A stretch of DNA of 64,000 nt from Naegleria gruberi (Eukaryota), in assembly GCA_000004985.1 (NCBI GenBank), contig GG738871.1. The stretch is one strand, 5' to 3'. Positions 8,440 to 37,017 of this stretch are shown one piece after another. Under the pieces are notes generated by a model that did no database searches, had not been told where the DNA came from, and worked only from the letters and a program-made list of their open reading frames with translations. Position 1 is the first letter of the stretch, and each line of letters begins with the position of its first letter. Position numbers and translations under genes: made by a program.

Positions 8440-8823
8440 TTGTACCACTATTTCTATAAGAAATACTTGGCAAGAGTTGAGTCTGTTCCCAAGCTTATTC
8501 TTGCTCGTTTTCGTAACTTTCTTCCAATAAGCAAAAGTGAGGCTAAAGCTGTTGAGATAATTAAATCCAACAATGTGGATTCTATGGTAGTATTGGATAA
8601 TGGCATGAAGAATGCAATCAAATCTCTCTTTGATTCTTTTAAAAATCTAAAACAGGACAAACCAATTCCAATACCACCACAGATAAATCGTGAAAGAATT
8701 GAAGATGAGCAATATTTGAGCATGGCAAGATATTTGGCTGAACTGCATAGAATGGGAAAGTCAAAGGAATATATGAATTGGTATTTGGCACGCAAGTTTA
8801 AATATCAAAATTCAGTTTATTGA
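8440..8823 (+). CDS. Hypothetical 127-aa protein
   Basis: ORF only, with no recognisable domain. It converges on the 3' end of the next gene. Confidence 0.25.
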   Translation: MYHYFYKKYLARVESVPKLILARFRNFLPISKSEAKAVEIIKSNNVDSMVVLDNGMKNAIKSLFDSFKNLKQDKPIPIPPQINRERIEDEQYLSMARYLAELHRMGKSKEYMNWYLARKFKYQNSVY

Positions 8824-10094
8824 ATGTAAACAAATTCGATTTGAGTTTTACCATTGTTGCTTGTAATCAATGCAAATCTTCCCAAAGTACCATAAACTTG
8901 AGTATCATGGGCAACATCAATGTGAATTTCTCTTCTTGGAACAAGAATGTTATCTTGATGGAAACCAATCAAACCAACATCACATGCCATACCATAAAAA
9001 GCAGTCTTTCCGTAGGCAGCAATTTGAGATGAACAAACTTTTGGTGGAATACCAAACAATGAATTGGCGTTAATTTCATAACCCAATGTAACTGTGGTAT
9101 TGGTTACATCGAATCTCAAAGCAGACAATGAACTATCAGCATTCATGCATGAAAGGAAGAATGAGTTAGTATCTCTTGAAATAAGATTTGAGCACTTATC
9201 TAATTGGAAATAAATACCATTTTTTCCAACCAATTTGACTGTTGCAATGATACCTCTTTGCAAATTACGTTTTTCAACAATAGAAACAGAATTTCCATAA
9301 CTCTTATCTGGAATGGCCAAGAAATCCTTTCCTACAGTCAAGAATGCATGTTGTGGAGCAAAGTTAATGTAAAAGTTACTTGGAGTGGCCAATAAAGTAG
9401 CACCAGTTTGAGGATGGATTGCAGTAATTCCACTACTGTACAAAATGTACAAAGTTGGTACAGATTGAGAAAGATCATACAAGAATTGACATCCACTTTG
9501 AATTCCTGAAAGGTTAATAATCCAATTACCAATACCACTCTTTCTATCAACATTGACAATGAAATTTCCAGAAGCAATAATCAAACCATAATCAGTAAGT
9601 ACCATTGCATGGATATTGTTATTGGTTTTAGTATCGAATAAAACTTGACTGTTTTGATCATTAGATAAAATAGAAGATCTCAAAACGAATGAAACTCCAT
9701 TAGTAGTGTTTCTTCTAACAGTATAGTATCCAAAGTTTTCATCCATCACTGGCAAGACATCCATCAATTCATATTCCTTTGGAATTTTAACCTTACTACT
9801 ACTCATTCCACCATCACGTTCAATACAAACAATAACTTGTCCACCACTTGCTTGATCAACACTCAAACCACAGAAATTCAAAGCATAGACAGGCATTACA
9901 ATAGAATTTGGGATTAACTTGAGACCATCATACATCTTGATTACATCTCTTTGTAAATCATAGGTTCCGAGATCAGAATTTCTCGATCTACCAGTATTAG
10001 CATTGGTTTGAATCCAGCCATCAATTCTACCGAAAACAAGAGCGCTATTCAATAAAACAAAGCAGCACAAGAGGAGTAACTTGGTTCTTATCAT
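8817..10094 (-). CDS. Secreted hypothetical protein of about 425 aa with an N-terminal signal peptide
   Basis: The internal Met at MIRTKLLLLCCFVLLNSALVFG is a textbook signal peptide. The 21 codons upstream in the track ORF are probably leader. No recognisable domain. Confidence 0.5.
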   Translation of the reverse strand: MIRTKLLLLCCFVLLNSALVFGRIDGWIQTNANTGRSRNSDLGTYDLQRDVIKMYDGLKLIPNSIVMPVYALNFCGLSVDQASGGQVIVCIERDGGMSSSKVKIPKEYELMDVLPVMDENFGYYTVRRNTTNGVSFVLRSSILSNDQNSQVLFDTKTNNNIHAMVLTDYGLIIASGNFIVNVDRKSGIGNWIINLSGIQSGCQFLYDLSQSVPTLYILYSSGITAIHPQTGATLLATPSNFYINFAPQHAFLTVGKDFLAIPDKSYGNSVSIVEKRNLQRGIIATVKLVGKNGIYFQLDKCSNLISRDTNSFFLSCMNADSSLSALRFDVTNTTVTLGYEINANSLFGIPPKVCSSQIAAYGKTAFYGMACDVGLIGFHQDNILVPRREIHIDVAHDTQVYGTLGRFALITSNNGKTQIEFVYIQ

Positions 10095-10430
10095 GTTCGT
10101 TGTGTCGCTTTTTTTTTGAAATTCAAGATTGAACTGGATAAAAGATAACTCACACAAATACTGGATTGTTGGCGCGTTATTTTTTAATTGAATGGTAACC
10201 TTCTAAATGAAGTTTGGTTTGTGTAACCGTCATTGTATTGTATTCTTCACCTAGGGTTACCGATATTCCCTCCAAATTACTCCTTCTGCATATTTAATCT
10301 TTAACTGTTCTTTAATTTGTAACCCTGAATCAATGTCATTTTTCTTTCTGCTTGTATTGAGTCCGTTTGGCACCATCAAAGGGGTAATTTTATTAAGGCT
10401 ATGTAAGGAATTAATTCATAATGAATGTGA

Positions 10431-10769: not shown

Positions 10770-13700
10770 TCAATAAAAGACAACGCCAACAACCAACACG
10801 GTTGATATAAGAGCTACATTGCTAAACAGTGATATTGCTGAGGATAGACGTTCAGATCTGGAAGGTTCTGAAAGAGATTTGAGCACTGGAGGAGGTACAG
10901 AACTTGAACTTTTAGGGCTTGCAGATGGTTTGATTCTTTCCTTAATTGAGAGTGGATTCATTGTTTCGAAAGTGGTTGAAATTTGAGTGGAATTGTAATG
11001 CAAAGTTGTTTTGGCTGTTAGTGAACCCTTAGGAATTGAAGAAGGAATATTAAATATCATCTTGGAAAGCAATTCATATTGGAATATTTGGGAGGAAATT
11101 GATTGACCATTCAATAAGAAATCAACATTAATGTCAATTGTCTTATTCTTATAAAAATCAATGAATTGAGAGTCTTGAATGTTGATGGTTAAAGTTGTGG
11201 AGATTTCTCCTACGAAATCATTGGTACTATTGAATGAAATGGTCACGTCTGATTGATTAAAATATCTAAATTGACATTGATTACCAATATAATTTGTTCT
11301 GCATTGACAAGTGTCATAATTAACGCAATCTCCATGTGAATTACACACATTGGAATGATCTACAGATGATAAACCAAAGCAATAGGTCAAATTACATGCC
11401 AACCCATACCATCTACTCTCATCAAGACATTTGCAATTATCAAATGATTGACAAGTTCCATTTCTAAAATTGCAAACTTGTGAGCTAGCTTGTTCTATTC
11501 CAAAACATGATGTGAATTGGCAATCTGATCCATAATAACCATGAACACAATCGCAGCTGTTCACATCTGTGCAATTTCCTTTCCCGCTACATACAGAACT
11601 GTCATTTTGCAATATTCCACTACATTTGACAAGCTCACAATTGCTTCCACCATATCCATCACTGCAAGAACAATAATTTACCGCATCACAAGAACCATGT
11701 GAGCTACAAACTGTTGTAGAATTAAAAGCTACATGATTACATTTCCAATATTGACATTTCTCTCCAAAATAATTCGAATCACAAATACAATTATCAGTTG
11801 ACAAGCAAATTCCATTTCCAGAACATGATCTATTATTCATTTTCTCAATTCCAAAGCATAGTGGATTCTTTGGCTTGCAATCATTAGGTGCATAGCAAAA
11901 TTGGTCTGTATCATTGCATGCATTCGATTCATTGGCAAGAATTCCAAAACAAATTGGAAATTGACAAGTCGTGGCAGGTCCATATCCAGCAGAACAATTA
12001 CAATTATTATACGAAGGGCAAGATCCATGTCCAAAGCAAACATTTGCATTATCTGAAGCTATGGAATTGCAAGTGGTCTTTTCACAATTGGCTCCAAAAT
12101 AATCAGTTGAGCATTTACAATTATTTGGAGTCAAGCATTGACCTTTTGAAGAGCAGACTTGAGTATCATTCGAATATTTTCCATGGCAAATAGGAATTTC
12201 ACATTTAGAACCTATCCATCCAGGGTTACATTGACATGAATCTGGAGAAATACATGTTCCATTTCCATTATTACAAATGGCATTAGTTTGATTCGTAAAA
12301 ATTCCAAAACATTGAATGAGTTCACATTCTGCACCTCCATACCCATTATTGCAGTGACAGGTATCTACATTTGAACATGTACCTCTTCCTTTACATACTG
12401 AACTTGTTTCATTTTGAAGAATTCCAAAACATTTGACAAGTTCACAATTTGATCCTCCATAGTTAGCTTCACATTCACATAAATTCAATGATTTACAAAT
12501 ACCCCTTTTAGAACAAACATGTGTAGTGTTTGTTGACATAATTCCTGCACATTTGAAAATCTGACAATCATTTCCTCCATAACTATTCGAATCATAACAT
12601 TGACAAGTGTCAGGTGATAGACAGTCACCTCTTCCTAAACACTGGCTAGAATTACCGGCTAGAATACCATTACACTTTGGGATTGAACAAAATCTTCCTC
12701 CCCAATGAGTTTCATCATTACATTTGCAAATGTCATCTGCCAAACAATTTCCTCTTCCATTACAAACATTTTCCATGGTCGACAAAGTGCCATTACACTT
12801 CAAGATTTGACAGTCATTACCACCAAATGCATACGTATCGAAACATTGACATTGATTTGGGGAAATGCATTGACCTCTGGAATTGCAAACTGTTGGATCT
12901 GATGCTGATGTCAAATTACATTTTGGAACGTCACATTTCAATCCATTCCATTGAGATTGATCTCTACAGACACATGTATCATGAGATACACAATCACCTC
13001 TTCCTGAACAAACACTGCTTGTTTGATTTGCTATTATTCCAAAACATACTGGAATTTCACATTTCTCACCAACATATCTTGACGTGTTGAAGCATTGACA
13101 GGTATTAAGTGCAATACAAGAGCCATTTCCTGAACAAACTGTTTCATCATTTGCTAAAGTACCATTACATTTTGGAATTTCACAATTTTCACCTCCATAA
13201 TTAGAATTACATTTACAATAATTGTAACGTTCACAAATTCCATTACCATTACATGCAGTAGATGAGTTTGAAAACTTTCCAAAACATGTTGTTACTGTAC
13301 ACTCAGGTCCATAATAATTTTCATTACACATGCATGTATTCACATCAACACATGTTCCATTTCCATGACATGCTAAAAAAGGATATTTGCTTTCAGATGA
13401 TTTCCCATAACATTCAGGAAGACATGTTCTTCCATCACCACTCAACACATAACCAACACCATCACAATATGGATAAACCTTCTTAATCAATCCAGCAACA
13501 TCATCAGCAATATAAATCTCATTCTTATTCTCCCTCACAAAAACATTAAAAGGAGAATCCAAGTAACAATTCACTGGATCAGAATTGTCTGGACATCCAC
13601 TCGAGGAATTTGTACTTCCAGCAATGATTTCCACTTGTCTATTTTGAATCTTTTTAACCTGCTTCAATCCAGGATCAGCAACAAACAATTCATCATGTGC

Positions 13701-14504
13701 TGTGTAATATAATCCCATTGGATTATTCCATGGAGTGGCTGTGAAATTTGCATCATTGAATGGTGGATACTCTGGATAAGGATTCCAATCTGGAGTGCTA
13801 GCACTGAATATGGTGTATGTTTCAGGAAGAACTAATCTCATAATTTTCCCATAATAAATATAGTAAATGTCACCTGTTAGTGGTGATGCAACTATTCCAC
13901 CATCGGTAGGTGATAAACCACAATTAGTGAACCAGTTAAATGAATTATAATTTGCCAAACTATAGTAACCCACGCAATTGTTACCAACATCCATGAAAAG
14001 CAACCAATTGTGAAATTTATCGATGGAAAGCATCTTTCCAAAGTACATGACATCTAGAGGATCCCCTTGTAATAGTTGTTTTTCCATAGTTGAGTGCTCT
14101 TATTTTCATACTAAAATATTCAGATAGGTAGACTTTCTCTTGTGCTTCATCAACAGCAATAAAAGGTTGATCTATAAATCTTTCGTTTCGACTAGTTTAG
14201 AATAGTTTACTTACTGCCAAGAGGAGCCATAAAAACGCTCAAAGTTCCATTAAAAACAGTTCTAATTAATTTAAATAATTAGTAAACTGTGAAAAATCAC
14301 TTACAATATCCTATTTTTGTAATAGTTGTTTTCATTGTTGTGTTCTGCAATGAACATGTCTCCATTGGCCAACACATGTACTGCTCGTGGCATGTTCAAC
14401 GAGCTGACAGCTGTCGTGATTTTGAACTTGACATTTAATGCACTGCACATGCCCAACAAAAGCACGAGGACAAATGCAAATAAAAACGTAAGGTTATTAT
14501 GCAT
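10770..14504 (-). CDS. Large secreted, GPI-like anchored protein. Signal peptide, NHL-repeat beta-propeller region, about 25 tandem tenascin-type EGF modules, then a Ser-rich stalk and a hydrophobic C-terminal tail.
   Basis: Exon 1 (14305..14504) encodes MHNNLTFLFAFVLVLLLGMCSALN (signal peptide) plus an NHL-like GDMFIAEHNNENNYY, and ends at a GTAAGT donor. The main exon (1105-aa ORF 10770..14087) has NHL-like repeats, then 31-aa C.G.C....C.C...Y.G..C modules. The C-terminus ...PSRSERLSSAISLFSNVALISTVLVVGVVFY looks like a GPI signal. The exact exon-2 acceptor is not resolved. Confidence 0.7.
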
Positions 14505-15906: not shown

Positions 15907-18471
15907 TTATTGTTTAGGCATTGTATCACAGTAATCTGTATAGAGTGGTATGTCTTCCTTGAGGCCCTTTCTCTTTCTGATAGATTTGATGAGCTTGTGA
16001 ACTTTAGATTGAGGATCATAAACATTGTCTTCCATAACTTTCCAATGACTGAAACTACATTGAGGGAAAGCTTGTCCTTGAGTCACACCTCTCAACTCTT
16101 CTGTTAAACCGAAACTTTCCAGCACAGGTAAAGAACCTGTAATACTAACGAGAGGAGTACCAATTACCATTTCAGTAGATTTGATAACACCTCTCCTATT
16201 AGAAATGACACTATAGACAGAACCCATTACTGATTGAGGACATTGAACTTCAACAAGATACATTGGTTCAACTAACTTTGGATCAGCTCTCAATTGACTA
16301 GCAGTCATGACACGTGATGTTGCTTGGAGAATTTGACCAGCTCCACGATGGATAGAATCTGCATGAAGATTACAATCATTAAATTTGAATAATACACCTC
16401 TCATTGCTTCATCACACAAACCTCCCGAAGAACTGCTTTGTTGGAAACTAGTGACAACATATTGTTGAATTTCATTAATATAGTCAACTGATTTGGTTGC
16501 ATTAACCAAAATGTTGCTACCCTTGTCAGCTTCAGGCCCAAAGCTCCAAATTCTCTTTGTTATGCTAGGATCCCATTCAAAGTCAATTTCTAAAATCTTG
16601 GCTCTCTTATTTTGATCATCCATTGGCAATTGACCTTCCTTAATCATTTCAATTAATTCCTCACTGATTGGTTCAGCTTGCATGTATAAACGATTGTGAC
16701 CGTTAGCACTTCTGGCCATGACCATATCACCATTCTTATTTGAAACTGTTTCGTGGAAAGTGACAACAGGAGGAGATTTTTTAATTTGAATTCCTCTGGC
16801 ATATTCTTCTTCTAAATTCTTTAAACAAATTTCCAAATGCAATTCACCTGCTGTTCCTAGAATATGTTGACCACTATCATTTTGCTTACATTCCAATAGA
16901 GGATCACTTTGAACGAGACGTTTCAAACCTTCAACAAATCGAGATAAATCAGCTGGATTGGCTGGTTCAACTCCCATTTGAACTACAGGACTCACAGAGT
17001 ATTTCATATTCTTAATTGGCATACATGCAACTTGTCCTTCTTCTGTCAATGTACATGATTTGATAATGTACTTGTCAAGACCAACAATACCGACGATGGC
17101 ACCACAAGAAGCTTGAGTTATGCTTTCAGTATTTTTACCAACCATTACTAACAATCTTTGAATGCTTGTATGGAAAACATCTTTCTTAGCAATTGGATCA
17201 TAGTTAGGACCTAGAATTCTCACCTTAGTTGATTGAGTCAAACTACCAGAGAAAATACGGGCTAAAGCAATAAAACGACCAACATTATTACTCATACTAG
17301 AGCTAGTATTAGAGTGCATAGGTACCATCTTACTGACATAAACAACTAGTGGTGCATTCGGATCACATTCCTTAATACCAGTAGCGTATGGATCTGTCAA
17401 ATCTTCACCGGTGTAGAGATTATCATACCTTACCTTTTGAGCTTCCTTAGGAGAAGGTAAATGGTTGATAATCATTTGAACTAGAGGTTTGTGAGCTGGG
17501 AGGAACTTTCTCATGATTGATTTAGCTAAAAGTTTCGGCTCTTTTCTCTTTTCTTCTTTCGTCAGAGGTATAGACAATGCGCTGATGATATTTTCCAAAT
17601 CTGTTGACAAAATACCTTCACTAGAAATTTCATGTTCTCTAACCAACTTGAAAATCTTGAAAATAGGTTCTAAAATGAATTCACAGAAAGTGTGCTTCAA
17701 TTGTTCACCACTTGTCGATGAATAAGGTTCAGTGGTAAACTTCTTAGTTGAGTGATCATAATAATTTTCACCCCATAATTTGTTAATAACCTTCTCAACA
17801 GGAAGTTTAAACTTCTTGCTATATAATTGAGCGAATTGCTCCAAAGTGAAAGCCCAACCCATCTTACCTGATCCAAAAGCAATGTTACAGTCAACTGGAT
17901 CAACAGAAACTGACTCATCAGAGTAAGTTGATAATAGAGCATTCACAGACTCGATAATTCTTAAAAAGTTTTGATAACTTTCTTCTTCAGTAAATTGCAT
18001 TTCTTCAATCAAACGGTCAACCTTGTTAATGAAGAGAACAGGACGAATTCTTTCTTGAAGAGATTGTCTAATTACTGTTTCAGTTTGACCTCTACAACCT
18101 TCAGCAGCGTCAACAATCAACACTGCACCATCAGTAATTCTCAAAGCTGTACTAACTTCAGATGAGAAATCAATATGACCTGGACAATCGATCAAATTAA
18201 CCAAGTGGTGATCATTCTCCTTGTCTGGATTTTCTAATACCATACTCAAACTTGTTGATTTAATGGTAATACCCTTTTCAATTTCATTCTTATCTACGTC
18301 GCAAACTCTCTTCTCACCTGCAGCATCTTCATCCACTAAACCAGCTGCTAAAGCCAATTGATCAGTGAGTGTTGATTTACCATGATCAACGTGAGCAATA
18401 ATACTAATGTTACGAATCTTGTTACTGTCGAGTAAGAGCCTTTCGAGTATTTCTTTACTGAACTTGACCAT
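15907..18471 (-). CDS. Elongation factor 2 family GTPase. An eEF2 paralog with the diphthamide site conserved.
   Basis: 854 aa. G1 AHVDHGKST, DCPGH, NKVD. The diphthamide region is LHADSIHRGAGQ. It is collinear over its full length with eEF2, but by eye the identity to canonical eEF2 is only moderate. Confidence 0.88.
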   Translation of the reverse strand: MVKFSKEILERLLLDSNKIRNISIIAHVDHGKSTLTDQLALAAGLVDEDAAGEKRVCDVDKNEIEKGITIKSTSLSMVLENPDKENDHHLVNLIDCPGHIDFSSEVSTALRITDGAVLIVDAAEGCRGQTETVIRQSLQERIRPVLFINKVDRLIEEMQFTEEESYQNFLRIIESVNALLSTYSDESVSVDPVDCNIAFGSGKMGWAFTLEQFAQLYSKKFKLPVEKVINKLWGENYYDHSTKKFTTEPYSSTSGEQLKHTFCEFILEPIFKIFKLVREHEISSEGILSTDLENIISALSIPLTKEEKRKEPKLLAKSIMRKFLPAHKPLVQMIINHLPSPKEAQKVRYDNLYTGEDLTDPYATGIKECDPNAPLVVYVSKMVPMHSNTSSSMSNNVGRFIALARIFSGSLTQSTKVRILGPNYDPIAKKDVFHTSIQRLLVMVGKNTESITQASCGAIVGIVGLDKYIIKSCTLTEEGQVACMPIKNMKYSVSPVVQMGVEPANPADLSRFVEGLKRLVQSDPLLECKQNDSGQHILGTAGELHLEICLKNLEEEYARGIQIKKSPPVVTFHETVSNKNGDMVMARSANGHNRLYMQAEPISEELIEMIKEGQLPMDDQNKRAKILEIDFEWDPSITKRIWSFGPEADKGSNILVNATKSVDYINEIQQYVVTSFQQSSSSGGLCDEAMRGVLFKFNDCNLHADSIHRGAGQILQATSRVMTASQLRADPKLVEPMYLVEVQCPQSVMGSVYSVISNRRGVIKSTEMVIGTPLVSITGSLPVLESFGLTEELRGVTQGQAFPQCSFSHWKVMEDNVYDPQSKVHKLIKSIRKRKGLKEDIPLYTDYCDTMPKQ

Positions 18472-30883: not shown

Positions 30884-31996
30884 ATTTTTTTCAAATCAAT
30901 TGCAAACAATAAAACATGTCATTTTTCAACTTCTTTTCACCAAGAAACCAAAAAAATTTGTTCCTATTATTGAATAACACAAAACCAGTAGCAACACCAC
31001 ACCAATGATAAATCAGCTTCTAACTTTTGAGATGTTAATTGCTTCATTTCACTGATGAATTTGATTCCTTCATCACTAATTTGATTGTCAGCAATATCAA
31101 GTAATGTTAATTGTTTCATTTCTCTTATTAATTTGGCTCATTTTTTTACAAATTCGAAATGGGGACTATCAATAATGATTTCGGAAACAATTTTACAAAT
31201 CAAACTTGTGCTTTACAGCCACAAAACCTATCAAGCCATTGATGATGTTTGTATTGATGGCTTCCAATCTTGCTTTGGGCCGTTTCGAAGGACCTTGTGC
31301 AGTTGATTTTTTTATTTTTTCAAAAGTAAAAAAAGCGCGCCACTGCTTCCCTCAAAGGCTTCCATTCTCTCAACAACATGTTATTGTTGTGATGCTTATG
31401 TTGTGGCAATAAGCCTTCTCGGAACTGTAAAGTGGTATTTTAAATAATCGTTGGACGAATGAAAAACTGTAATGGATGGAAGTGAACAGATCAAATCACA
31501 ATCACACAATGAAGAGTTTATCTGTGAAAGAGGGATGGAAAAAGACAAATAGGGTTTGTTGCCTTTTCGCCTCGGTGCACTTTTTCATATGTGACATAGC
31601 CTATCTGCCTTGTAGTACGATGATATTAAAATCACATATGAAGCTTTATTGATTCTCGAGTCACTGCGTAGAGCACTTTATTCAATATATTTACAAGGCA
31701 AGTGGATGATTCATGTTTGATACCAATTGGTTAAGAGCTTGACAATTAGCTAACCACCTTTGAAAAACGTTCAACAATCATCTAAAAGCCTGACACCCTT
31801 AGAGTTTACCAGCTCGGTAATTTGGCTATTTCGGTTAATGCTTATACAAAATTGAAAGTGCCAAAATTAATATGTGAAAAATAATTGGATACCGCTTGCC
31901 AGTTGATTGTGATATGCCAAGTTTGAAGTTTGATTGTTGTCTTGACCCTCCACATTGAAAAAAACAAAACACATAGCACCTTGGTAGTAGATAACA

Positions 31997-34900
31997 ATGA
32001 TGCCAAGATTTTCGGGTTGCACGCTATTAACATTGTTTTTCATTCAAAGTATTGTGTTAATAATACTTTTAACACAAACAACACCAGTTCTCTCATGGTC
32101 CTATAGTATGAGAACTGTAGCTTCAGCACCAGATACTATTACTCAAATTGTTGGTGGTAATCAATTTATTTATGCTGCCTTTGGTTCTGATAATATTGTT
32201 TATTATAACAGAAGTGATTCAACTCAAATTGATGTCGCTACCATGTTGGCTGCTACTAATACTAATGCTGGTTCTACTTTTAAATATGTCGCTTACCATG
32301 GTCAAACTTCTGGAGGAAATGATATCATTTCTGCTGGTACTGTTAGTGGCATCTTTGATAGTGTTGGATTGTATTCATGCGCTATTGATTCACAGAACCT
32401 TCCTGCCTCTTTGACGGCCTTTACTGGCACTTCTCCAACAAAATTATTTGGTGTGAGAGGAAAATCATCTAATTCTCCATCAGATCCTCAATTTTATCTC
32501 ATGACAGATCAAGGAATTATTGAAGCTGATTCATCTAGTTCTTCGCCTGTTGGCTCTGCTTCATTTAGTACTCAAGTTGACTTGGATTTTAATTCTTCCA
32601 TGGTAAGTTTATTTCTTCTAAAAACGTTGTGATAATCTAATACTTTGATAGATATTTTATTTGGATTCTTCTAGTAATCTTTGGTCGGGTTTGACTAGCA
32701 GTACTAAAGTTATTGGCAGCGGACTTAATTTACCAAGATCTTTGAGCTTTGTTGATACTTTTAATCAAGTAAGTGATGAAATAGTACTCATTTCTCTAAT
32801 TAAATTAGATTTTTATCTCTGATACTGGTAATGGTCGTGTTAAAGTTTTGGATCTATCCTCAAATCAAGTTACCACCATTGCCGGAGGTTCTTCAACTCT
32901 TCCACCAAATGACTTTACACTTGTTAGCTCACCAACTAACTATCAAATTACTCCTACTGGTATTTGGGTTGACAAGTCAAATGGATACGTATACATTGCC
33001 GATGGAGCATACATAAGAGTTCTCACACCAACTTGTAACACCATTTCTGAGGATGCCTCTTCTTCATATCCTTTCTGTGTCTGCAAATCAGGCTATATTC
33101 TCCAAGATGGGGTTTGTGTTGTTAACAACTGTTTGACATGTAACTCAAATCAAACTTGCGTATCAAATGCCTGTGTCTGTAAAAATGGTTATTCTGGAGC
33201 TTTATGTTCTGAATACAAGTGTTTTGGTACCCCTAAAGATAATGTTGGAGTATGTAGTAGTAGAGGTTATTGTACTGCACCAGATAATTGTATCTGTACT
33301 GACTCTATGAAATACTCAGGCGCTTCATGTAATGTTACTACCTGTAATTCCATCCCATCCTATCAATCTAATGTTTGTTCTGGAAAAGGTCAATGTACTG
33401 ATTATAACTTGTGTGTATGTACCAACACAACTGAATACGGAGGAGTAAATTGTGAATATTTCAAATGTAATGGACTCAATTCAAATGATGGAAACGTATG
33501 CAGTAAGAACGGCACTTGTGTTGGAATTAATTCATGTTCATGCAATTCAAATTATGCTGGTAACAACTGCCAGTACCCTAAGTGTAACGGAATCCCATCA
33601 ACTGATACTAATAATGTTTGTAATAAGAATGGTACCTGTGTTGCTGTTGATACCTGCAACTGTAATGTTAATTACACTGGTCAATTCTGTCAATATCCAA
33701 AATGTAATGGTACAGCTTCAAACGATGCAAGTGTTTGTAACTCCAATGGTGTTTGTAGTGGTGTTAATAATTGTGTCTGTAATTCAAATTATACTGGCCA
33801 ATACTGTCAATTCCCTAAGTGTAACGGAATTGGCTCAAATGATATTAATGTTTGCTCAAAGAACGGTACCTGTGTTGCTGTTAATACTTGTAATTGTAAT
33901 GTTAATTATACTGGACCATATTGTCAGTATCCAAAATGTAATGGCACGGCTTCAAATGATATTAATGTGTGCAGTAAGAATGGTAATTGTATCGCTCCAA
34001 ATGTTTGTTCATGTAATTCAAGCTTTTCTGGCCAATTCTGTCAATATCCAAAATGTAATGGAATCCCATCAACTGATACTAATAATGTTTGTAATAAGAA
34101 TGGTACCTGTGTTGCTGTTGATACCTGCAACTGTAATGTTAATTACACAGGTCAATTCTGTCAATATCCAAAGTGTAATGGTACAGCTTCAAATGATATT
34201 AATGTGTGCAGTAAGAATGGTAATTGTATCGCTCCAAATGTTTGTTCATGTAATTCAAGCTACACTGGTCAATTCTGTCAATATCCAAAATGTAATGGCA
34301 TTCCATCAAACGATGCTAGTGTTTGTAATTCAAATGGTACCTGTATTGGTGTTAATACTTGTAATTGTAATGCTAATTATACTGGTCAATTCTGTCAATA
34401 TCCAAAATGTAATGGTACTAGCTTCTAATGATACTAATGTTTGCAGTAAGAAGGTGGTAATTGTATTGCACCAAATGTTTGTTCATGTAATTCAAGCTAC
34501 ACTGGACAATTCTGTCAATTCCCAAAGTGTAATGGTATTGGATCCAATGATGGAAGTGTTTGTAATGCAAATGGTACTTGTATTGGAATTAACATTTGTT
34601 CTTGCAATTCGAATTATGCTGGACAATTCTGTCAATATCCAAAATGTAATAGTATTGCTTCGAATAGTGGCAGTGTTTGTAATTCACAAGGATCATGTGT
34701 TGCACCAAATGTTTGTGTCTGTAATTCAAATTATACTGGCACTTATTGTGACAAACCAAGATGTGGCATCTATTATAAGGGTGATGCTTCTGCTTGTAAT
34801 TCGAGAGGTAGTTGTGATGCTGTTGATAGTTGTACTTGTAGTGATACATCTTCTTGGGGTGGCAATTTGTGTCAATATCCAAAATGTAATGCTGTTCTTT

Positions 34901-37017
34901 CAAATGTTGGAACTGTTTGTAGCAGTAGAGGAACTTGTCAATCTCCAAACAATTGTTCATGCACTGATCCAAGTTCATATGGTGGTTCATATTGTGAAAA
35001 AGCAAAATGTTATGGAATTCTTCAAGGAGATTCAAATGTTTGCAGTGGGCATGGTACTTGCAGTGGTGTGAATCAATGTTCATGCAGTGCTGGATATGGA
35101 GGTGAACAATGTCAATATCCAAAATGTTTCACTATTTTGAGTAATGAAACAACAGTTTGTAACAATAGAAACGGTACATGTACTGCACCTGATACTTGTT
35201 CATGTAACAACGGATGGACTGGAAGCAAGTGTGATGTTGCCATTTGTTTTTCAATTCTCTCCAATTCAACAAAGGTTTGTTCAAACAAGAGAGGTAGTTG
35301 TGTCACACCAGATAATTGTGTTTGTAAAAGTCAATATTCAGGTTCTCAATGTGAATATACCACTTGTTCTGGAATAAGATCAGATCAAACATCGACAGTA
35401 TGTTATGGAAATGGTCAATGTATTGATTATAATACTTGTAATTGTACAACTGGTTATGGACCATCCAATGTATGTCAATATCCAATTTGTGGTGGCTATT
35501 TGGCAAATGATACAAGAGTTTGTAACAATTCAAGAGGTGTATGTTTGAGACCAAATGAATGTAGACCATTAGATCCCGTATGTTATGGTAAAGCTCAGAA
35601 TAATTCAATGGTTTGTAGTGGACATGGTTCATGTATCGATTGGGATTATTGTGAATGTAAAACTGGTTTCAATGGAAATGAATGTCAAAATTGGGAATGT
35701 TATGGAAAGAATTATACCAACTCAAATGTTTGTAACAATGGAAATGGTACCTGCTCATCTGTGAATAATTGTGTTTGTAACAGTGGATGGTATGGAAATG
35801 AATGTACAGTTCCAATGTGTAATGGAATTCTTGCAAATTCATCCCTAGTTTGTAACAATGGAAATGGTACCTGCTCCAAACCAGGTGCATGCCAATGTAA
35901 TACTGGATACACAGGATCTGACTGTTCCATTCCAATTTGTTATGGCAAATTAGGCACTGATACAAGTAATGTTTGTTCAGGAAGAGCAGACTGTATTGGT
36001 TATAACAAGTGTAATTGTGACACTTCCAAGTATAGTGGTTCACAATGTGAATATTTCAAATGTTTTGGTATTCCGTCAAATGATGCTTCAGTTTGCAGCA
36101 GAAACGGAACATGTTCAGGTGTGAATCAATGTTCTTGTAATTATGGTTATGGTTCTTCAAATTGTGACATTTTCACATGTTCAAATGTTCTTGCCACCAA
36201 TTCAAGTGTTTGCAGTGGAAAGGGTGTATGTTATGGAATTGACAAGTGTTCATGTGATTCAGGATATTTTGGATCAAATTGTGAAATTATCTCCTGTTAT
36301 GGAATTCCAAAGTCCAACAATACTGTATGTGGTGGAGTTGGTGAATGTTCACAACTTGATACATGTGTTTGTGGAAGCGGTTATAGAGGCTCAATGTGTG
36401 AATTATCTTACACCTCTTCATCTCAAGCAACACTTCAATTCAACAATACGAATGAATATGTGAATGAACAATTCACAAGCATGGTCACTTTGACAATTAA
36501 TAATCCACTCTTCGGCCAATATTATTTGAGAAGAAGTGTTCAAGTTGTTGTTTCATTTGAAATTAATTCACAATTCAGTTATTCTGAAACACTTTATATT
36601 GAAAATGGAGTTTCATCTGTTTCATTAATGGTGAAATCGTTGAGTCAAACTGGTACATTGAAAGCATCTGCTCAATTAATTGATAATAGCACATTGATTT
36701 CCATTTCAGATAGTATTCAATCTTCAAATAGCATTACAATTCAAAATAGACCTATTGTTGTTCCATCTACAAAGACATCCACAACCAAACCAACAACCTC
36801 TGCACAAACAAGTAGAGCTGTTATCGATACAGGAAGTAATGCAGGAGCCATTGCAGCTGGTGTTATTGTTCCAGTGGCAGTTATTGGAATTGGAGGTGGT
36901 GTCACTGCAGCCATTGTCACAGCAGTTGTTTTATTAAAGAAGAAGGCTGCTGCAGCTGCTGCCGCAGAAATTTCCCATGCTCAACACGTCAATGTTGAAC
37001 TTGTTGAAGGTTTCTAA
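31997..37017 (+). CDS. Large type-I membrane protein. Signal peptide, NHL-repeat region, about 38 tandem tenascin-type EGF modules, stalk, TM helix and a short poly-Ala/Lys tail. Exons 31997..32602, 32652..32768 and 32809..37017. There is an internal +1/+2 compensated frameshift at about 34420-34460.
   Basis: Signal peptide MMPRFSGCTLLTLFFIQSIVLIILLTQT. NHL-like ISDTGNGRVKVLD. The introns are GTAAGT..AG and were verified by hand. The EGF module is C.G..C....C.C...Y.G..C repeated. The C-terminus reads AGVIVPVAVIGIGGGVTAAIVTAVVLLKKKAAAAAAA. This is a paralog of the minus-strand gene at 10770..14504. Confidence 0.75.
33480..34560. repeat. Array of near-identical 93-nt EGF-module coding repeats. 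Stretches of about 89 nt are 100% identical, for example 33590-33678 and 34062-34150.
   Basis: Read directly. Long exact DNA repeats lie inside the CDS, consistent with recent duplication or gene conversion. This is a likely hotspot for assembly collapse. Confidence 0.8.

Follow-up and report, generated by a model that had tools for sequence, protein, structure and literature searches.

What kind of proteins do two large genes in a 64,000-nucleotide window of Naegleria gruberi DNA (the window being the whole stretch analysed) encode, and how are they related, given that both reading frames are broken in the assembly? A preliminary description had placed two paralogous genes at 31997..37017 on the plus strand and 10770..14504 on the minus strand, and both are present at those positions (Table 1; hereafter the plus and minus genes). 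The minus-strand ORF is 100% identical to NAEGRDRAFT_49505, which identifies the DNA as N. gruberi. This annotated protein corresponds to part of minus exon 3, from 14087 down, and a search of the public protein set found no protein identical to the plus gene product; the public model of the minus gene is truncated and the plus gene has no public model. The two genes lie on opposite strands, 17.5 kb apart, with the unrelated housekeeping genes EF-2, FIBP, RasGAP and DUF4116 between them. Neither is a single uninterrupted reading frame: each contains frame-breaking indels and two introns of 40-49 nt, all of the GTAAGT..AG type.

Table 1. Coordinates of the features of the two genes, as positions in the window.
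Feature	Position	Strand	Description
Plus gene	31997..37017	+	ATG at 31997, stop codon ends at 37017
Plus exon 1	31997..32602	+	Signal peptide (31997-32098) and start of degenerate propeller; GTAAGT at 32603
Plus intron 1	32603..32651	+	49 nt, GTAAGT...TAG; removal leaves frame continuous
Plus exon 2	32652..32768	+	39 codons; first part of blade reaching Pfam NHL cut-off
Plus intron 2	32769..32808	+	40 nt, GTAAGT...TAG
Plus exon 3	32809..37017	+	Last propeller blades, EGF array, stalk, linker, TM, tail
Plus exon 3, last propeller blades	to 33039	+	
Plus EGF array	33076-36399	+	
Central 11-module array	33466..34761	+	Similar modules, 'CNGI'/'CNGT' alternating, 237-nt higher-order period
89-nt exact repeat, copy 1	33589..33677	+	Identical to copy 2, offset 471 nt
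89-nt exact repeat, copy 2	34060..34148	+	
76-nt exact repeat, copy 1	33949..34024	+	Identical to copy 2, offset 237 nt
76-nt exact repeat, copy 2	34186..34261	+	
Plus frame lesion, module 775	34419..34454	+	Extra T at 34419, extra GG at 34453-34454
Plus stalk	36400-36756	+	Thr/Ser-rich linker comes next
Plus TM helix	36841-36936	+	
Plus C-terminal tail	36937-37014	+	26 aa, KKK-A7...VELVEGF
Minus gene	10770..14504	-	ATG at 14504, stop codon ends at 10770
Minus exon 1	14305..14504	-	Signal peptide (14439-14504) and first NHL-like blade
Minus intron 1	14262-14304	-	43 nt, GTAAGT..AG
Minus exon 2	14215..14261	-	Between the two introns
Minus intron 2	14172-14214	-	43 nt, GTAAGT..AG
Minus exon 3	10770..14171	-	Remaining propeller, EGF array, stalk, Ser-rich region, GPI-like end
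Minus frame lesion	14063..14066	-	G4 run; 1-nt frameshift splits upstream exons from annotated ORF
Minus exon 3, remaining propeller	to 13452	-	
Minus EGF array	11274-13424	-	
Minus stalk	10929-11273	-	
Minus Ser-rich region	10836-10931	-	
Minus GPI-like hydrophobic end	10773-10835	-	

The outline first proposed for the two proteins, a signal peptide, an NHL-like propeller and tandem EGF modules ending in a transmembrane (TM) helix in one case and a GPI-like sequence in the other, was recovered throughout, the full order of parts being signal peptide, degenerate six-bladed propeller, EGF rod, ~120-aa domain, Ser/Thr/Pro-rich linker and anchor. Membership of the EGF class was judged by Pfam models PF07974, PF25024 and PF23106 and by a six-cysteine pattern above curated cut-offs. 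As the preliminary description had anticipated, EGF_2, EGF_TEN and EGF_Teneurin match strongly in both translations (E 1e-31 to 1e-50), with scores in both genes of 125-170 bits for EGF_2 (PF07974; cut-off 22) and 110-137 bits for EGF_TEN (cut-off 65). The modules had been described as 31 aa long and 25-40 in number; the measured period is 117-120 nt, or 39-41 aa, in both arrays, and a regular-expression count returns 28 modules for the plus gene (27 and one truncated) and 18 for the minus gene (17+1). The same kind of pattern gives a cysteine spacing of C1-x10/11-C2-x5-C3-x5-C4-x-C5-x8/10-C6-x4, and the six cysteines are kept in every module. The rod modules are also rich in N-x-S/T sequons, the plus protein having 42 and the minus protein 31.

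The NHL-like propeller finds weak support in Pfam and better support in profile and structural comparisons. Pfam NHL (PF01436) recognises one repeat in the plus protein (aa 228-254, encoded by exons 2-3; 20.3 bits, where the cut-off is 20, and E 5.6e-4) and reaches E 0.36 in the minus protein. A custom, family-specific blade HMM, with scores of 29.6 and 22.0 bits, places six blade-spaced matches in the minus protein, and alignment to canonical Naegleria propellers with hhalign puts the probability for the minus gene at 98.9% and that for the plus gene at 91-97%. An AF2 model of four minus-gene blades (3-6) has a pLDDT of 77.4 and a pTM of 0.78, although it leans toward the NHL fold because canonical NHL sequences formed the rows of its alignment. 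Foldseek matches this model best to NHL/YWTD propellers (E 1e-8 to 1e-6), among them the SOQ1 NHL domain, teneurin-2, the LDLR YWTD domain, PknD and NHLRC2. A fold of four-stranded propeller blades is thereby predicted for blades 3-6 of the minus gene only. Sequence searches with the first ~225 aa of the plus protein detected no relatives, and a single-sequence AF2 model of the N-terminus of its N. lovaniensis orthologue is of low confidence (pLDDT 32). Taken as a whole, the profile and structural comparisons suggest that both genes carry a degenerate six-bladed NHL-type β-propeller, the plus version being very divergent.

At the plus protein's opposite end, sequence features predict a type I orientation: the TM helix with a KKK-AAAAAAA tail reported earlier is indeed there, the helix being followed by KKKAAAAAAAEISHAQHVNVELVEGF, and helix and 26-aa tail alike are conserved in alignments with N. 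lovaniensis and N. fowleri relatives. The minus protein ends in a Ser-rich stretch and then ISLFSNVALISTVLVVGVVFY, with cytoplasmic residues absent. Inspection of this C-terminus (...RLSSA-ISLFSN-VALISTVLVVGVVFY-stop) for the hallmarks of GPI attachment, namely a signal peptide at the N-terminus and, at the C-terminus, small residues at the omega position, a short polar spacer and a hydrophobic stretch that closes the protein and leaves no cytoplasmic residues, indicates a putative GPI-attachment-like signal, in keeping by eye with the Ser-rich omega region and GPI-type tail that had been assigned to this gene.

The two genes had been said to differ only in anchorage. Their EGF arrays, however, are 36-44% identical and their stalks 29% (E 3e-11), and only the last two blades of the propellers align, at 31% identity; the level of identity between the arrays makes the duplication an old one. 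The stalk, ~120 aa following the last EGF module, has no Pfam match and is family-specific; it is conserved in both genes and defines the family with or without the TM helix and KKK...VELxxGF tail. A profile of stalk, TM helix and tail matches 17 of 1.84 billion cluster representatives, always with NHL and/or EGF_TEN alongside, and NAEGRDRAFT_49505 scores E 3e-41 in this search. Three Naegleria proteins whose only catalogue name is 'EGF-like domain-containing protein' (C9374_011222 and C9374_014632 from N. lovaniensis, FDP41_011322 from N. fowleri) share with the plus gene a signal peptide, an NHL propeller, an EGF_TEN-type array, the ~120-aa stalk, a TM helix and a tail of the form KKK...D-V-E-L-x-x-G-F. 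C9374_011222 is the probable plus-gene orthologue, with 49-50% identity over the C-terminal 850 aa and the landmark truncated module described below; relative to its Naegleria relative the plus gene has ~11 additional modules, and in the minus gene a GPI-like end has replaced the lost TM helix and tail. In both window genes the NHL blades are far more degenerate than in C9374_014632 or FDP41_011322.

The arrays of both genes contain a landmark in which a truncated module precedes the motif C-[RKS]-P-x-x-[PA]-x-C-[FY]-G; in a comparison of 163 retrieved proteins together with the conceptual translations of the two window genes, only four carried it: the plus and minus genes, P0002 and P0004. 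On this sequence evidence, the two genes are old paralogues in a four-member subfamily that includes two N. lovaniensis genes. In P0004, the plus-gene orthologue of N. lovaniensis, the architecture is the same, the frame is intact and the modules number 17; the N. lovaniensis counterparts reside on separate contigs, and the sequence flanking P0004 shows no synteny with the window. In relatives further afield the same EGF stalk is combined with alternative heads (RCC1 or Kelch) and with ends that are GPI-like, a short tail, a kinase or RGS, so that the wider family runs to dozens of members with many head and anchor combinations. A literature search found no experimental study of any NHL-EGF-stalk protein.

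Exact internal DNA repeats had been claimed for the locus; they occur in the plus gene (89 and 76 nt), and a search of the minus gene for exact repeats of at least 20 nt found none. The 89-nt identity itself is real, but the positions first given for it (33590-33678 and 34062-34150) are 1-2 nt off and out of register, such that only 21/89 positions agree. Given a background module identity of ~72%, a perfect run of this length has a chance of ~2e-13. TRF reports periods of 117, 237 and 471 nt in the plus array, and one module pair is identical at 115/117 positions as against 67-78% for neighbours at the same offset (Fisher p ~1e-9), bearing out the suggestion of recent duplication or ongoing gene conversion in this gene. 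DNA identity among the central modules is patchy, with tracts of 100-200 nt at 95-100% lying beside tracts at 67-80%, a pattern for which gene conversion or unequal crossovers of small extent appear to be a better explanation than the duplication of a single block. The 11-module array is absent from P0004, which has 9 modules before the landmark compared with 20 in the plus gene; the N. lovaniensis orthologue carries an independent 369-nt duplication of its own.

The frame of each gene is interrupted at one place. Alignment with two sister modules identified the extra bases in the plus gene, where four in-frame stops result (34426, 34429, 34435 and 34447); because the sequence gains 3 nt overall, the frame resumes downstream, and in the repaired frame the lesioned module differs from a sister module by 6 synonymous and 2 nonsynonymous changes. 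In the minus gene, three-frame translation reveals that deletion of a single G from the four-G run restores a continuous 1215-aa protein, the blades of which align with canonical NHL blades; only after this 1-nt repair does the signal peptide join the long ORF. These lesions probably account for the lack of a public plus-gene protein and for the truncation of the public model of the minus gene. An independent view of the plus gene comes from an environmental contig, the sole population sample, which is 99.2% identical to it. Its indels are confined to the 5' flank and the two plus-gene introns (1 nt in intron 1, 2 nt in intron 2), exon 1 shows substitutions only, 4/6 of them at third codon positions, and 2 of 211 amino acids are changed. 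Since the indels fall only in flank and introns and the exon changes are mostly at third positions, the contig backs the plus gene model, and the comparison shows a signature of purifying selection on the plus 5' exons in this environmental relative, with hypervariability not seen.

As both genes are broken as assembled, they could be non-functional in the sequenced strain. Were they true pseudogenes, with repeats and architecture as relics, the cause could be that selection on surface receptors had relaxed in a laboratory clone kept long in culture; the four stops, the frameshift between the signal-peptide exons and the main ORF of the minus gene, and the absence of the plus gene from the public set would all follow, and it would otherwise be a coincidence that both N. 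gruberi members of the subfamily are affected. We nevertheless regard this reading as unlikely. Each gene bears a single local lesion over 4.9 kb (plus) and 3.7 kb (minus) of coding sequence, 853 codons remain open downstream of the plus lesion by virtue of its +3 net length, no module has lost any of its six cysteines, and the lesioned module differs from its sister mostly at synonymous codons; the N. lovaniensis orthologue is intact, the plus 5' exons show purifying selection in the environmental relative, and the lesions are explained just as simply by consensus errors, arising within near-identical repeats and in G runs. Could the assembly instead have produced the exact repeats, and perhaps the indels too, through mis-joined or duplicated reads, the true module set being smaller or different? 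Tandem arrays with 95-100% identical tracts do assemble poorly, and the plus lesion falls within the third copy of a near-identical module, but the near-identical tracts extend for 90-200 nt between copy-specific flanks at 67-80% identity, and being so short and so flanked they would be spanned and anchored by ordinary reads. The copies, moreover, differ by few, mostly synonymous, substitutions, and the independently assembled N. lovaniensis orthologue has a similar internal duplication, leaving an artefact of this kind highly improbable. Recent mutation or error in the consensus, not old decay, is the most likely origin of the lesions.

The preliminary description had further nominated the locus as a candidate for self/non-self recognition, and one could picture a mating-type-like system in which the TM protein and the GPI protein form a ligand-receptor pair that is matched and polymorphic: they are two surface proteins of one subfamily within 18 kb of each other, the repeat array evolves rapidly and the N-terminal head diverges quickly across species. 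This proposal went unsupported, and we consider it very unlikely. The genes are non-adjacent, with EF-2, FIBP, RasGAP and DUF4116 in the intervening 17.5 kb; their 36-44% identity marks an old duplication, and the sole allele sample shows near-identity and purifying selection. The separate contigs of the N. lovaniensis counterparts, the non-syntenic P0004 flanks and the many head and anchor combinations of the wider family also speak against a dedicated pair.

The reading that we prefer, and hold to be somewhat probable, is that the two genes, paralogues of long standing, belong to a 'head on a stalk' family of surface glycoproteins restricted to Naegleria. On architecture alone, we infer an adhesin or receptor on a stalk: a disulfide-bonded, glycosylated EGF rod would lift the propeller, its likely ligand-binding head, tens of nanometres above the membrane, and the proteins may bind prey, substrate or other cells in the role of adhesins or receptors, with gene conversion or small unequal crossovers in the array making stalk length evolvable. 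The kind of protein is ordinary; what is new is that the plus gene is missing from the public set and that both frames are broken in the assembly. The family as a whole has three membrane formats, a cytoplasmic kinase, a short conserved tail and a GPI-like end. A bolder and unlikely extension would make the tail-only and GPI forms in the window co-receptors or decoys for the kinase forms, with recombination in the EGF rod tuning length. If so, Naegleria would deploy a single ectodomain design (propeller head, EGF rod and stalk) in all three formats and would have evolved independently a counterpart of the receptor-like kinase, receptor-like protein and GPI co-receptor sets of plants.

Among known systems, the proteins had been likened to teneurins and tenascins, a comparison that holds for the types of EGF module and fails on the defining features of each. 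Teneurins share the Pfam types EGF_TEN and EGF_Teneurin with both window genes and likewise hold an NHL β-propeller off the membrane, and the minus-blade model superposes on the NHL domain of teneurin-2 as a predicted structure. Teneurins, however, have a type II orientation, their large cytoplasmic domain being N-terminal, and carry exactly 8 EGF modules, each of ~31-33 aa, along with a YD-repeat shell and toxin-like C-terminal domains (PMC3278476, PMC6297184). The window proteins, by contrast, have an N-terminal signal peptide and a C-terminal TM or GPI-like end, an orientation that is type I or GPI-like, and their 18-28 modules are each 39-41 aa long; past the EGF array there is only the ~120-aa stalk before linker and anchor where teneurins have the YD shell, and Pfam scans over most of both proteins found no YD/Rhs or toxin domain above threshold. 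In tenascin, EGF modules of ~31 aa are followed by FN3 repeats and a fibrinogen globe; the window arrays have a period of 39-41 aa, and the Pfam scan found no FN3 or fibrinogen match.

In the LDL-receptor family and in M. tuberculosis PknD the extracellular binding head is a six-bladed NHL/YWTD-class propeller, placed beside EGF modules in LDLR and on a receptor kinase in PknD, and both are among the top structural matches of the minus-blade model. Naegleria relatives whose ectodomain is also joined to kinase domains recall PknD, although the window genes differ from both systems in having no LDL-A modules, YWTD motif or kinase and a far longer EGF rod. Yeast Flo and Als adhesins are GPI- or TM-anchored, and the length of their tandem-repeat stalks shifts by recombination of near-identical units. 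The window genes, by analogy, encode surface proteins with a central repeat stalk, built from unrelated domains.

The paired NHL/EGF genes of the preliminary description proved real, although several of its descriptive details were wrong. Both genes (hereafter the plus and minus genes) lie in eukaryotic DNA (~34% G+C), and both are frame-broken as assembled. Compared with two sister modules, the plus gene carries an extra T at 34419 and an extra GG at 34453-54; this lesion sits in copy three of a near-identical module and holds four in-frame stops (34426-34449), after which the net gain of 3 nt leaves the frame open again for 853 codons. The lesioned module in its repaired frame differs from its sister at six synonymous and two nonsynonymous codons, indicating that the indels are recent or artefactual. 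The minus-gene lesion, a 1-nt shift in a G run (14063-14066), cuts the signal-peptide exons and propeller blades 1 and 2 off the annotated ORF. These lesions are the likely cause of two annotation defects: a protein identical to the plus-gene product is absent from a 5.8-billion-protein collection, and the public minus-gene model (NAEGRDRAFT_49505, an N. gruberi 'hypothetical protein' 100% identical to the long minus-strand ORF 10773-14087) begins at an internal Met, without the signal peptide and first two blades. Four window proteins were also looked up by exact sequence to find annotated gene models around the plus gene, and none is on record. Both annotations are correctable after a check of the indels; the repaired conceptual proteins span 1642 aa (plus) and 1215 aa (minus).

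Coordinates of the two EGF genes, their repeats and neighbouring ORFs in the window
Feature	Position	Strand	Remark
Plus gene, exons	31997-32602, 32652-32768, 32809-37017	+	
Minus gene, exons	14504-14305, 14261-14215, 14171-10770	-	
89-nt exact repeat	33589-33677 = 34060-34148	+	
76-nt exact repeat	33949-34024 = 34186-34261	+	
11-module array, 'CNGI'/'CNGT' modules alternating	33466-34761	+	holds both exact repeats
Tail KKK-A(n)...[DN]-[VF]-E-[LI]-x-x-G-F	36937-37014	+	also at C-termini of retrieved proteins P0002, P0003, P0004, P0006
Beta-helix ORF, 464 aa	37643-39037	+	626 nt 3' of plus gene
446-aa ORF	8817-10157	-	directly 3' of minus gene
Elongation factor 2 gene, intact single ORF	15907-18471	-	between the two EGF genes

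The same interruptions might be read as introns, and none that would rescue either lesion is plausible. A 33- or 36-nt GT..AG intron beginning at 34413 would bypass the plus-gene stops; one splice choice itself hits a stop, and the other loses cysteine C2, leaving five cysteines. Its 5' site reads GTACTA, as against GTAAGT in all four clear introns of the two genes (GTAAGT...AG), and either length falls below their 40-49 nt. Around the minus-gene frameshift the sole GT..AG pair covers 13 nt, and a conserved blade strand would be lost with any longer intron. A search of JGI metagenomes for independent copies of both lesion sites returned no match. The plus-gene model is supported by an environmental contig (ENA metagenome ERZ929261, 1568 bp) that is 99.2% identical to window 31327-32895, stopping ~1.5 kb short of the frame lesion and thus not informative there. 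Indels between the two sequences lie only in the 5' flank and in proposed introns 1 and 2, and five of the eight exonic substitutions fall at third codon positions, with two amino-acid changes, a pattern that also indicates purifying selection on the 5' exons. The level of identity places a very close N. gruberi relative in the ERZ929261 sample.

Both repaired proteins start with a signal peptide, followed by a degenerate NHL-type propeller of ~290 aa. Domain searches for NHL and EGF modules recovered the EGF arrays, with a weak Pfam signal for NHL: a single plus-gene repeat stood at the cut-off, and the minus gene had none. When blades of canonical Naegleria relatives were used to train an HMM, six blade-spaced matches emerged in the minus protein. 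Aligned by hhalign with nine canonical six-blade propellers, the minus protein reached a probability of 98.9% (E 2e-16, 270 columns) and the plus protein 91-97%. Blades 3-6 of the minus gene were modelled with AF2 (pLDDT 77, pTM 0.78), and the model structurally matches the SOQ1 NHL domain, teneurin-2, the LDLR YWTD domain, PknD and NHLRC2; as its alignment consisted of canonical NHL sequences, this evidence is supportive rather than independent. Single-sequence AF2 of the N-terminus of the N. lovaniensis orthologue, a proxy for the plus head, was unusable (pLDDT 32).

The propeller is followed by an EGF array. Module counts are 28 (plus) and 18 (minus), rather than the 25-40 first stated, and the repeat period is 39-41 aa, not 31 aa. 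Cysteines in both are spaced C-x10/11-C-x5-C-x5-C-x-C-x8/10-C-x4, and the arrays hold 38 (plus) and 23 (minus) N-x-S/T sequons. Searching PDB sequences with the array returned weak generic EGF matches only (WIF-1, Delta-like 1, tubular mastigoneme protein). Next comes a stalk domain of ~120 aa, 29% identical between the proteins (E 3e-11) and with no Pfam match, and then a Ser/Thr/Pro-rich linker that precedes the anchor. In the plus protein the anchor is a TM helix with a 26-aa tail, KKKAAAAAAAEISHAQHVNVELVEGF, kept in relatives from N. lovaniensis and N. fowleri, whereas the minus protein ends ...RLSSA-ISLFSN-VALISTVLVVGVVFY, which by eye fits a putative GPI signal. The cytoplasmic tail motif is common to three Naegleria species, and many further EGF-array proteins end in a looser form, 'E-[LM]-x-x-[NG]-[IVF]'; the tail motif resembles a di-acidic D-x-E ER-export code and may have a comparable role.

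Searching 1.84 billion cluster representatives with a profile built from stalk, TM helix and tail yielded just 17 matches, all of which also carry NHL and/or EGF_TEN domains. Together these define a protist 'propeller-on-EGF-stalk' surface-protein family, hitherto catalogued as hypothetical proteins only and restricted to Naegleria. A landmark truncated module marks a four-member subfamily comprising the plus gene, the minus gene and N. lovaniensis P0002 and P0004 (C9374_011222). The plus gene is nearest to P0004 (~50% identity, same degenerate head), its probable orthologue, which has an intact frame and 17 modules. For the minus gene, identity to each of the other three members is 43-45%. 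These identities indicate that the window genes are old paralogues and no recent pair. Synteny between the window and the P0004 flanks is absent beyond the gene itself. In more distant relatives the same EGF rod bears different heads and terminates in different ways (GPI-like, short tail, kinase or RGS), and this swapping suggests that the rod is a generic spacer and the propeller a binding head. One 631-aa member, P0168, has NHL matches and the stalk, with no EGF modules at E <=0.001; here the stalk cassette may attach straight to the propeller. Long EGF_TEN-type arrays also appear in proteins (P0109 and P0125) labelled Nanoarchaeota ('MopE-related') and Chloroflexota, and could be protist DNA contaminating metagenome bins or genuine prokaryotic EGF arrays.

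The exact ~89-nt repeats of the plus gene are real, at positions 1-2 nt from those first given, and were taken to imply recent duplication or ongoing gene conversion. The patchy identity of the central array is not what a single block duplication with uniform later divergence would leave: modules 500 and 657 share 98% identity, and modules 618, 697 and 775 (the lesioned one) 88-95%, whereas neighbouring modules at those offsets reach only 67-80% (Fisher p 1e-7 to 1e-11). This patchiness is consistent with gene conversion or small unequal crossovers. The 11-module array is missing from the N. lovaniensis orthologue, which has its own three-module, 369-nt duplication (11477-11950 of the retrieved DNA; exact runs of 49, 29 and 24 nt), indicating that the region expands independently in each species. 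No exact repeats of at least 20 nt were found in the minus gene. The locus is a clean case of a protist surface gene whose repeats have been homogenised.

The intact EF-2 gene between the two genes shows that they are not a tandem pair, and other neighbours are equally unrelated (FIBP, RasGAP, DUF4116, a beta-helix protein, UDP-glucose dehydrogenase). The product of the 464-aa ORF 3' of the plus gene is a right-handed beta-helix protein (Pfam Beta_helix E 2.8e-17) with a stretch rich in Thr/Pro towards the C-terminus and a hydrophobic, GPI-like end; an exactly matching product was not found on record. The ORF beside the minus gene matches no Pfam family, and close to its start lies a segment resembling a signal peptide, MIRTKLLLLCCFVLLNSALVFG. 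A self/non-self locus, as once proposed, finds no support: unrelated and housekeeping genes intervene, the paralogues are old, and the sole allele sample is nearly identical.

From architecture, the best-supported reading of both proteins is a surface adhesin or receptor, in which a rigid, glycosylated EGF rod, evolvable in length, would hold the propeller far off the membrane. A literature search for EGF/NHL surface proteins of Naegleria or Acrasis found no experimental paper on the family, its 'EGF' matches being eGFP. Homologues in the pathogen N. fowleri could be candidate adhesins or surface antigens.

The suggested teneurin/tenascin membership fails. The window proteins differ from teneurins in orientation and module size, and Pfam scans covering most of both proteins brought no YD domain to threshold; from tenascins they differ in module size and in giving neither FN3 nor fibrinogen matches. 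None of these findings overturns current views; teneurin-type EGF arrays and NHL propellers do occur in a lineage distant from animals, and their combination in Naegleria is a caution for domain-based accounts of teneurin origin.
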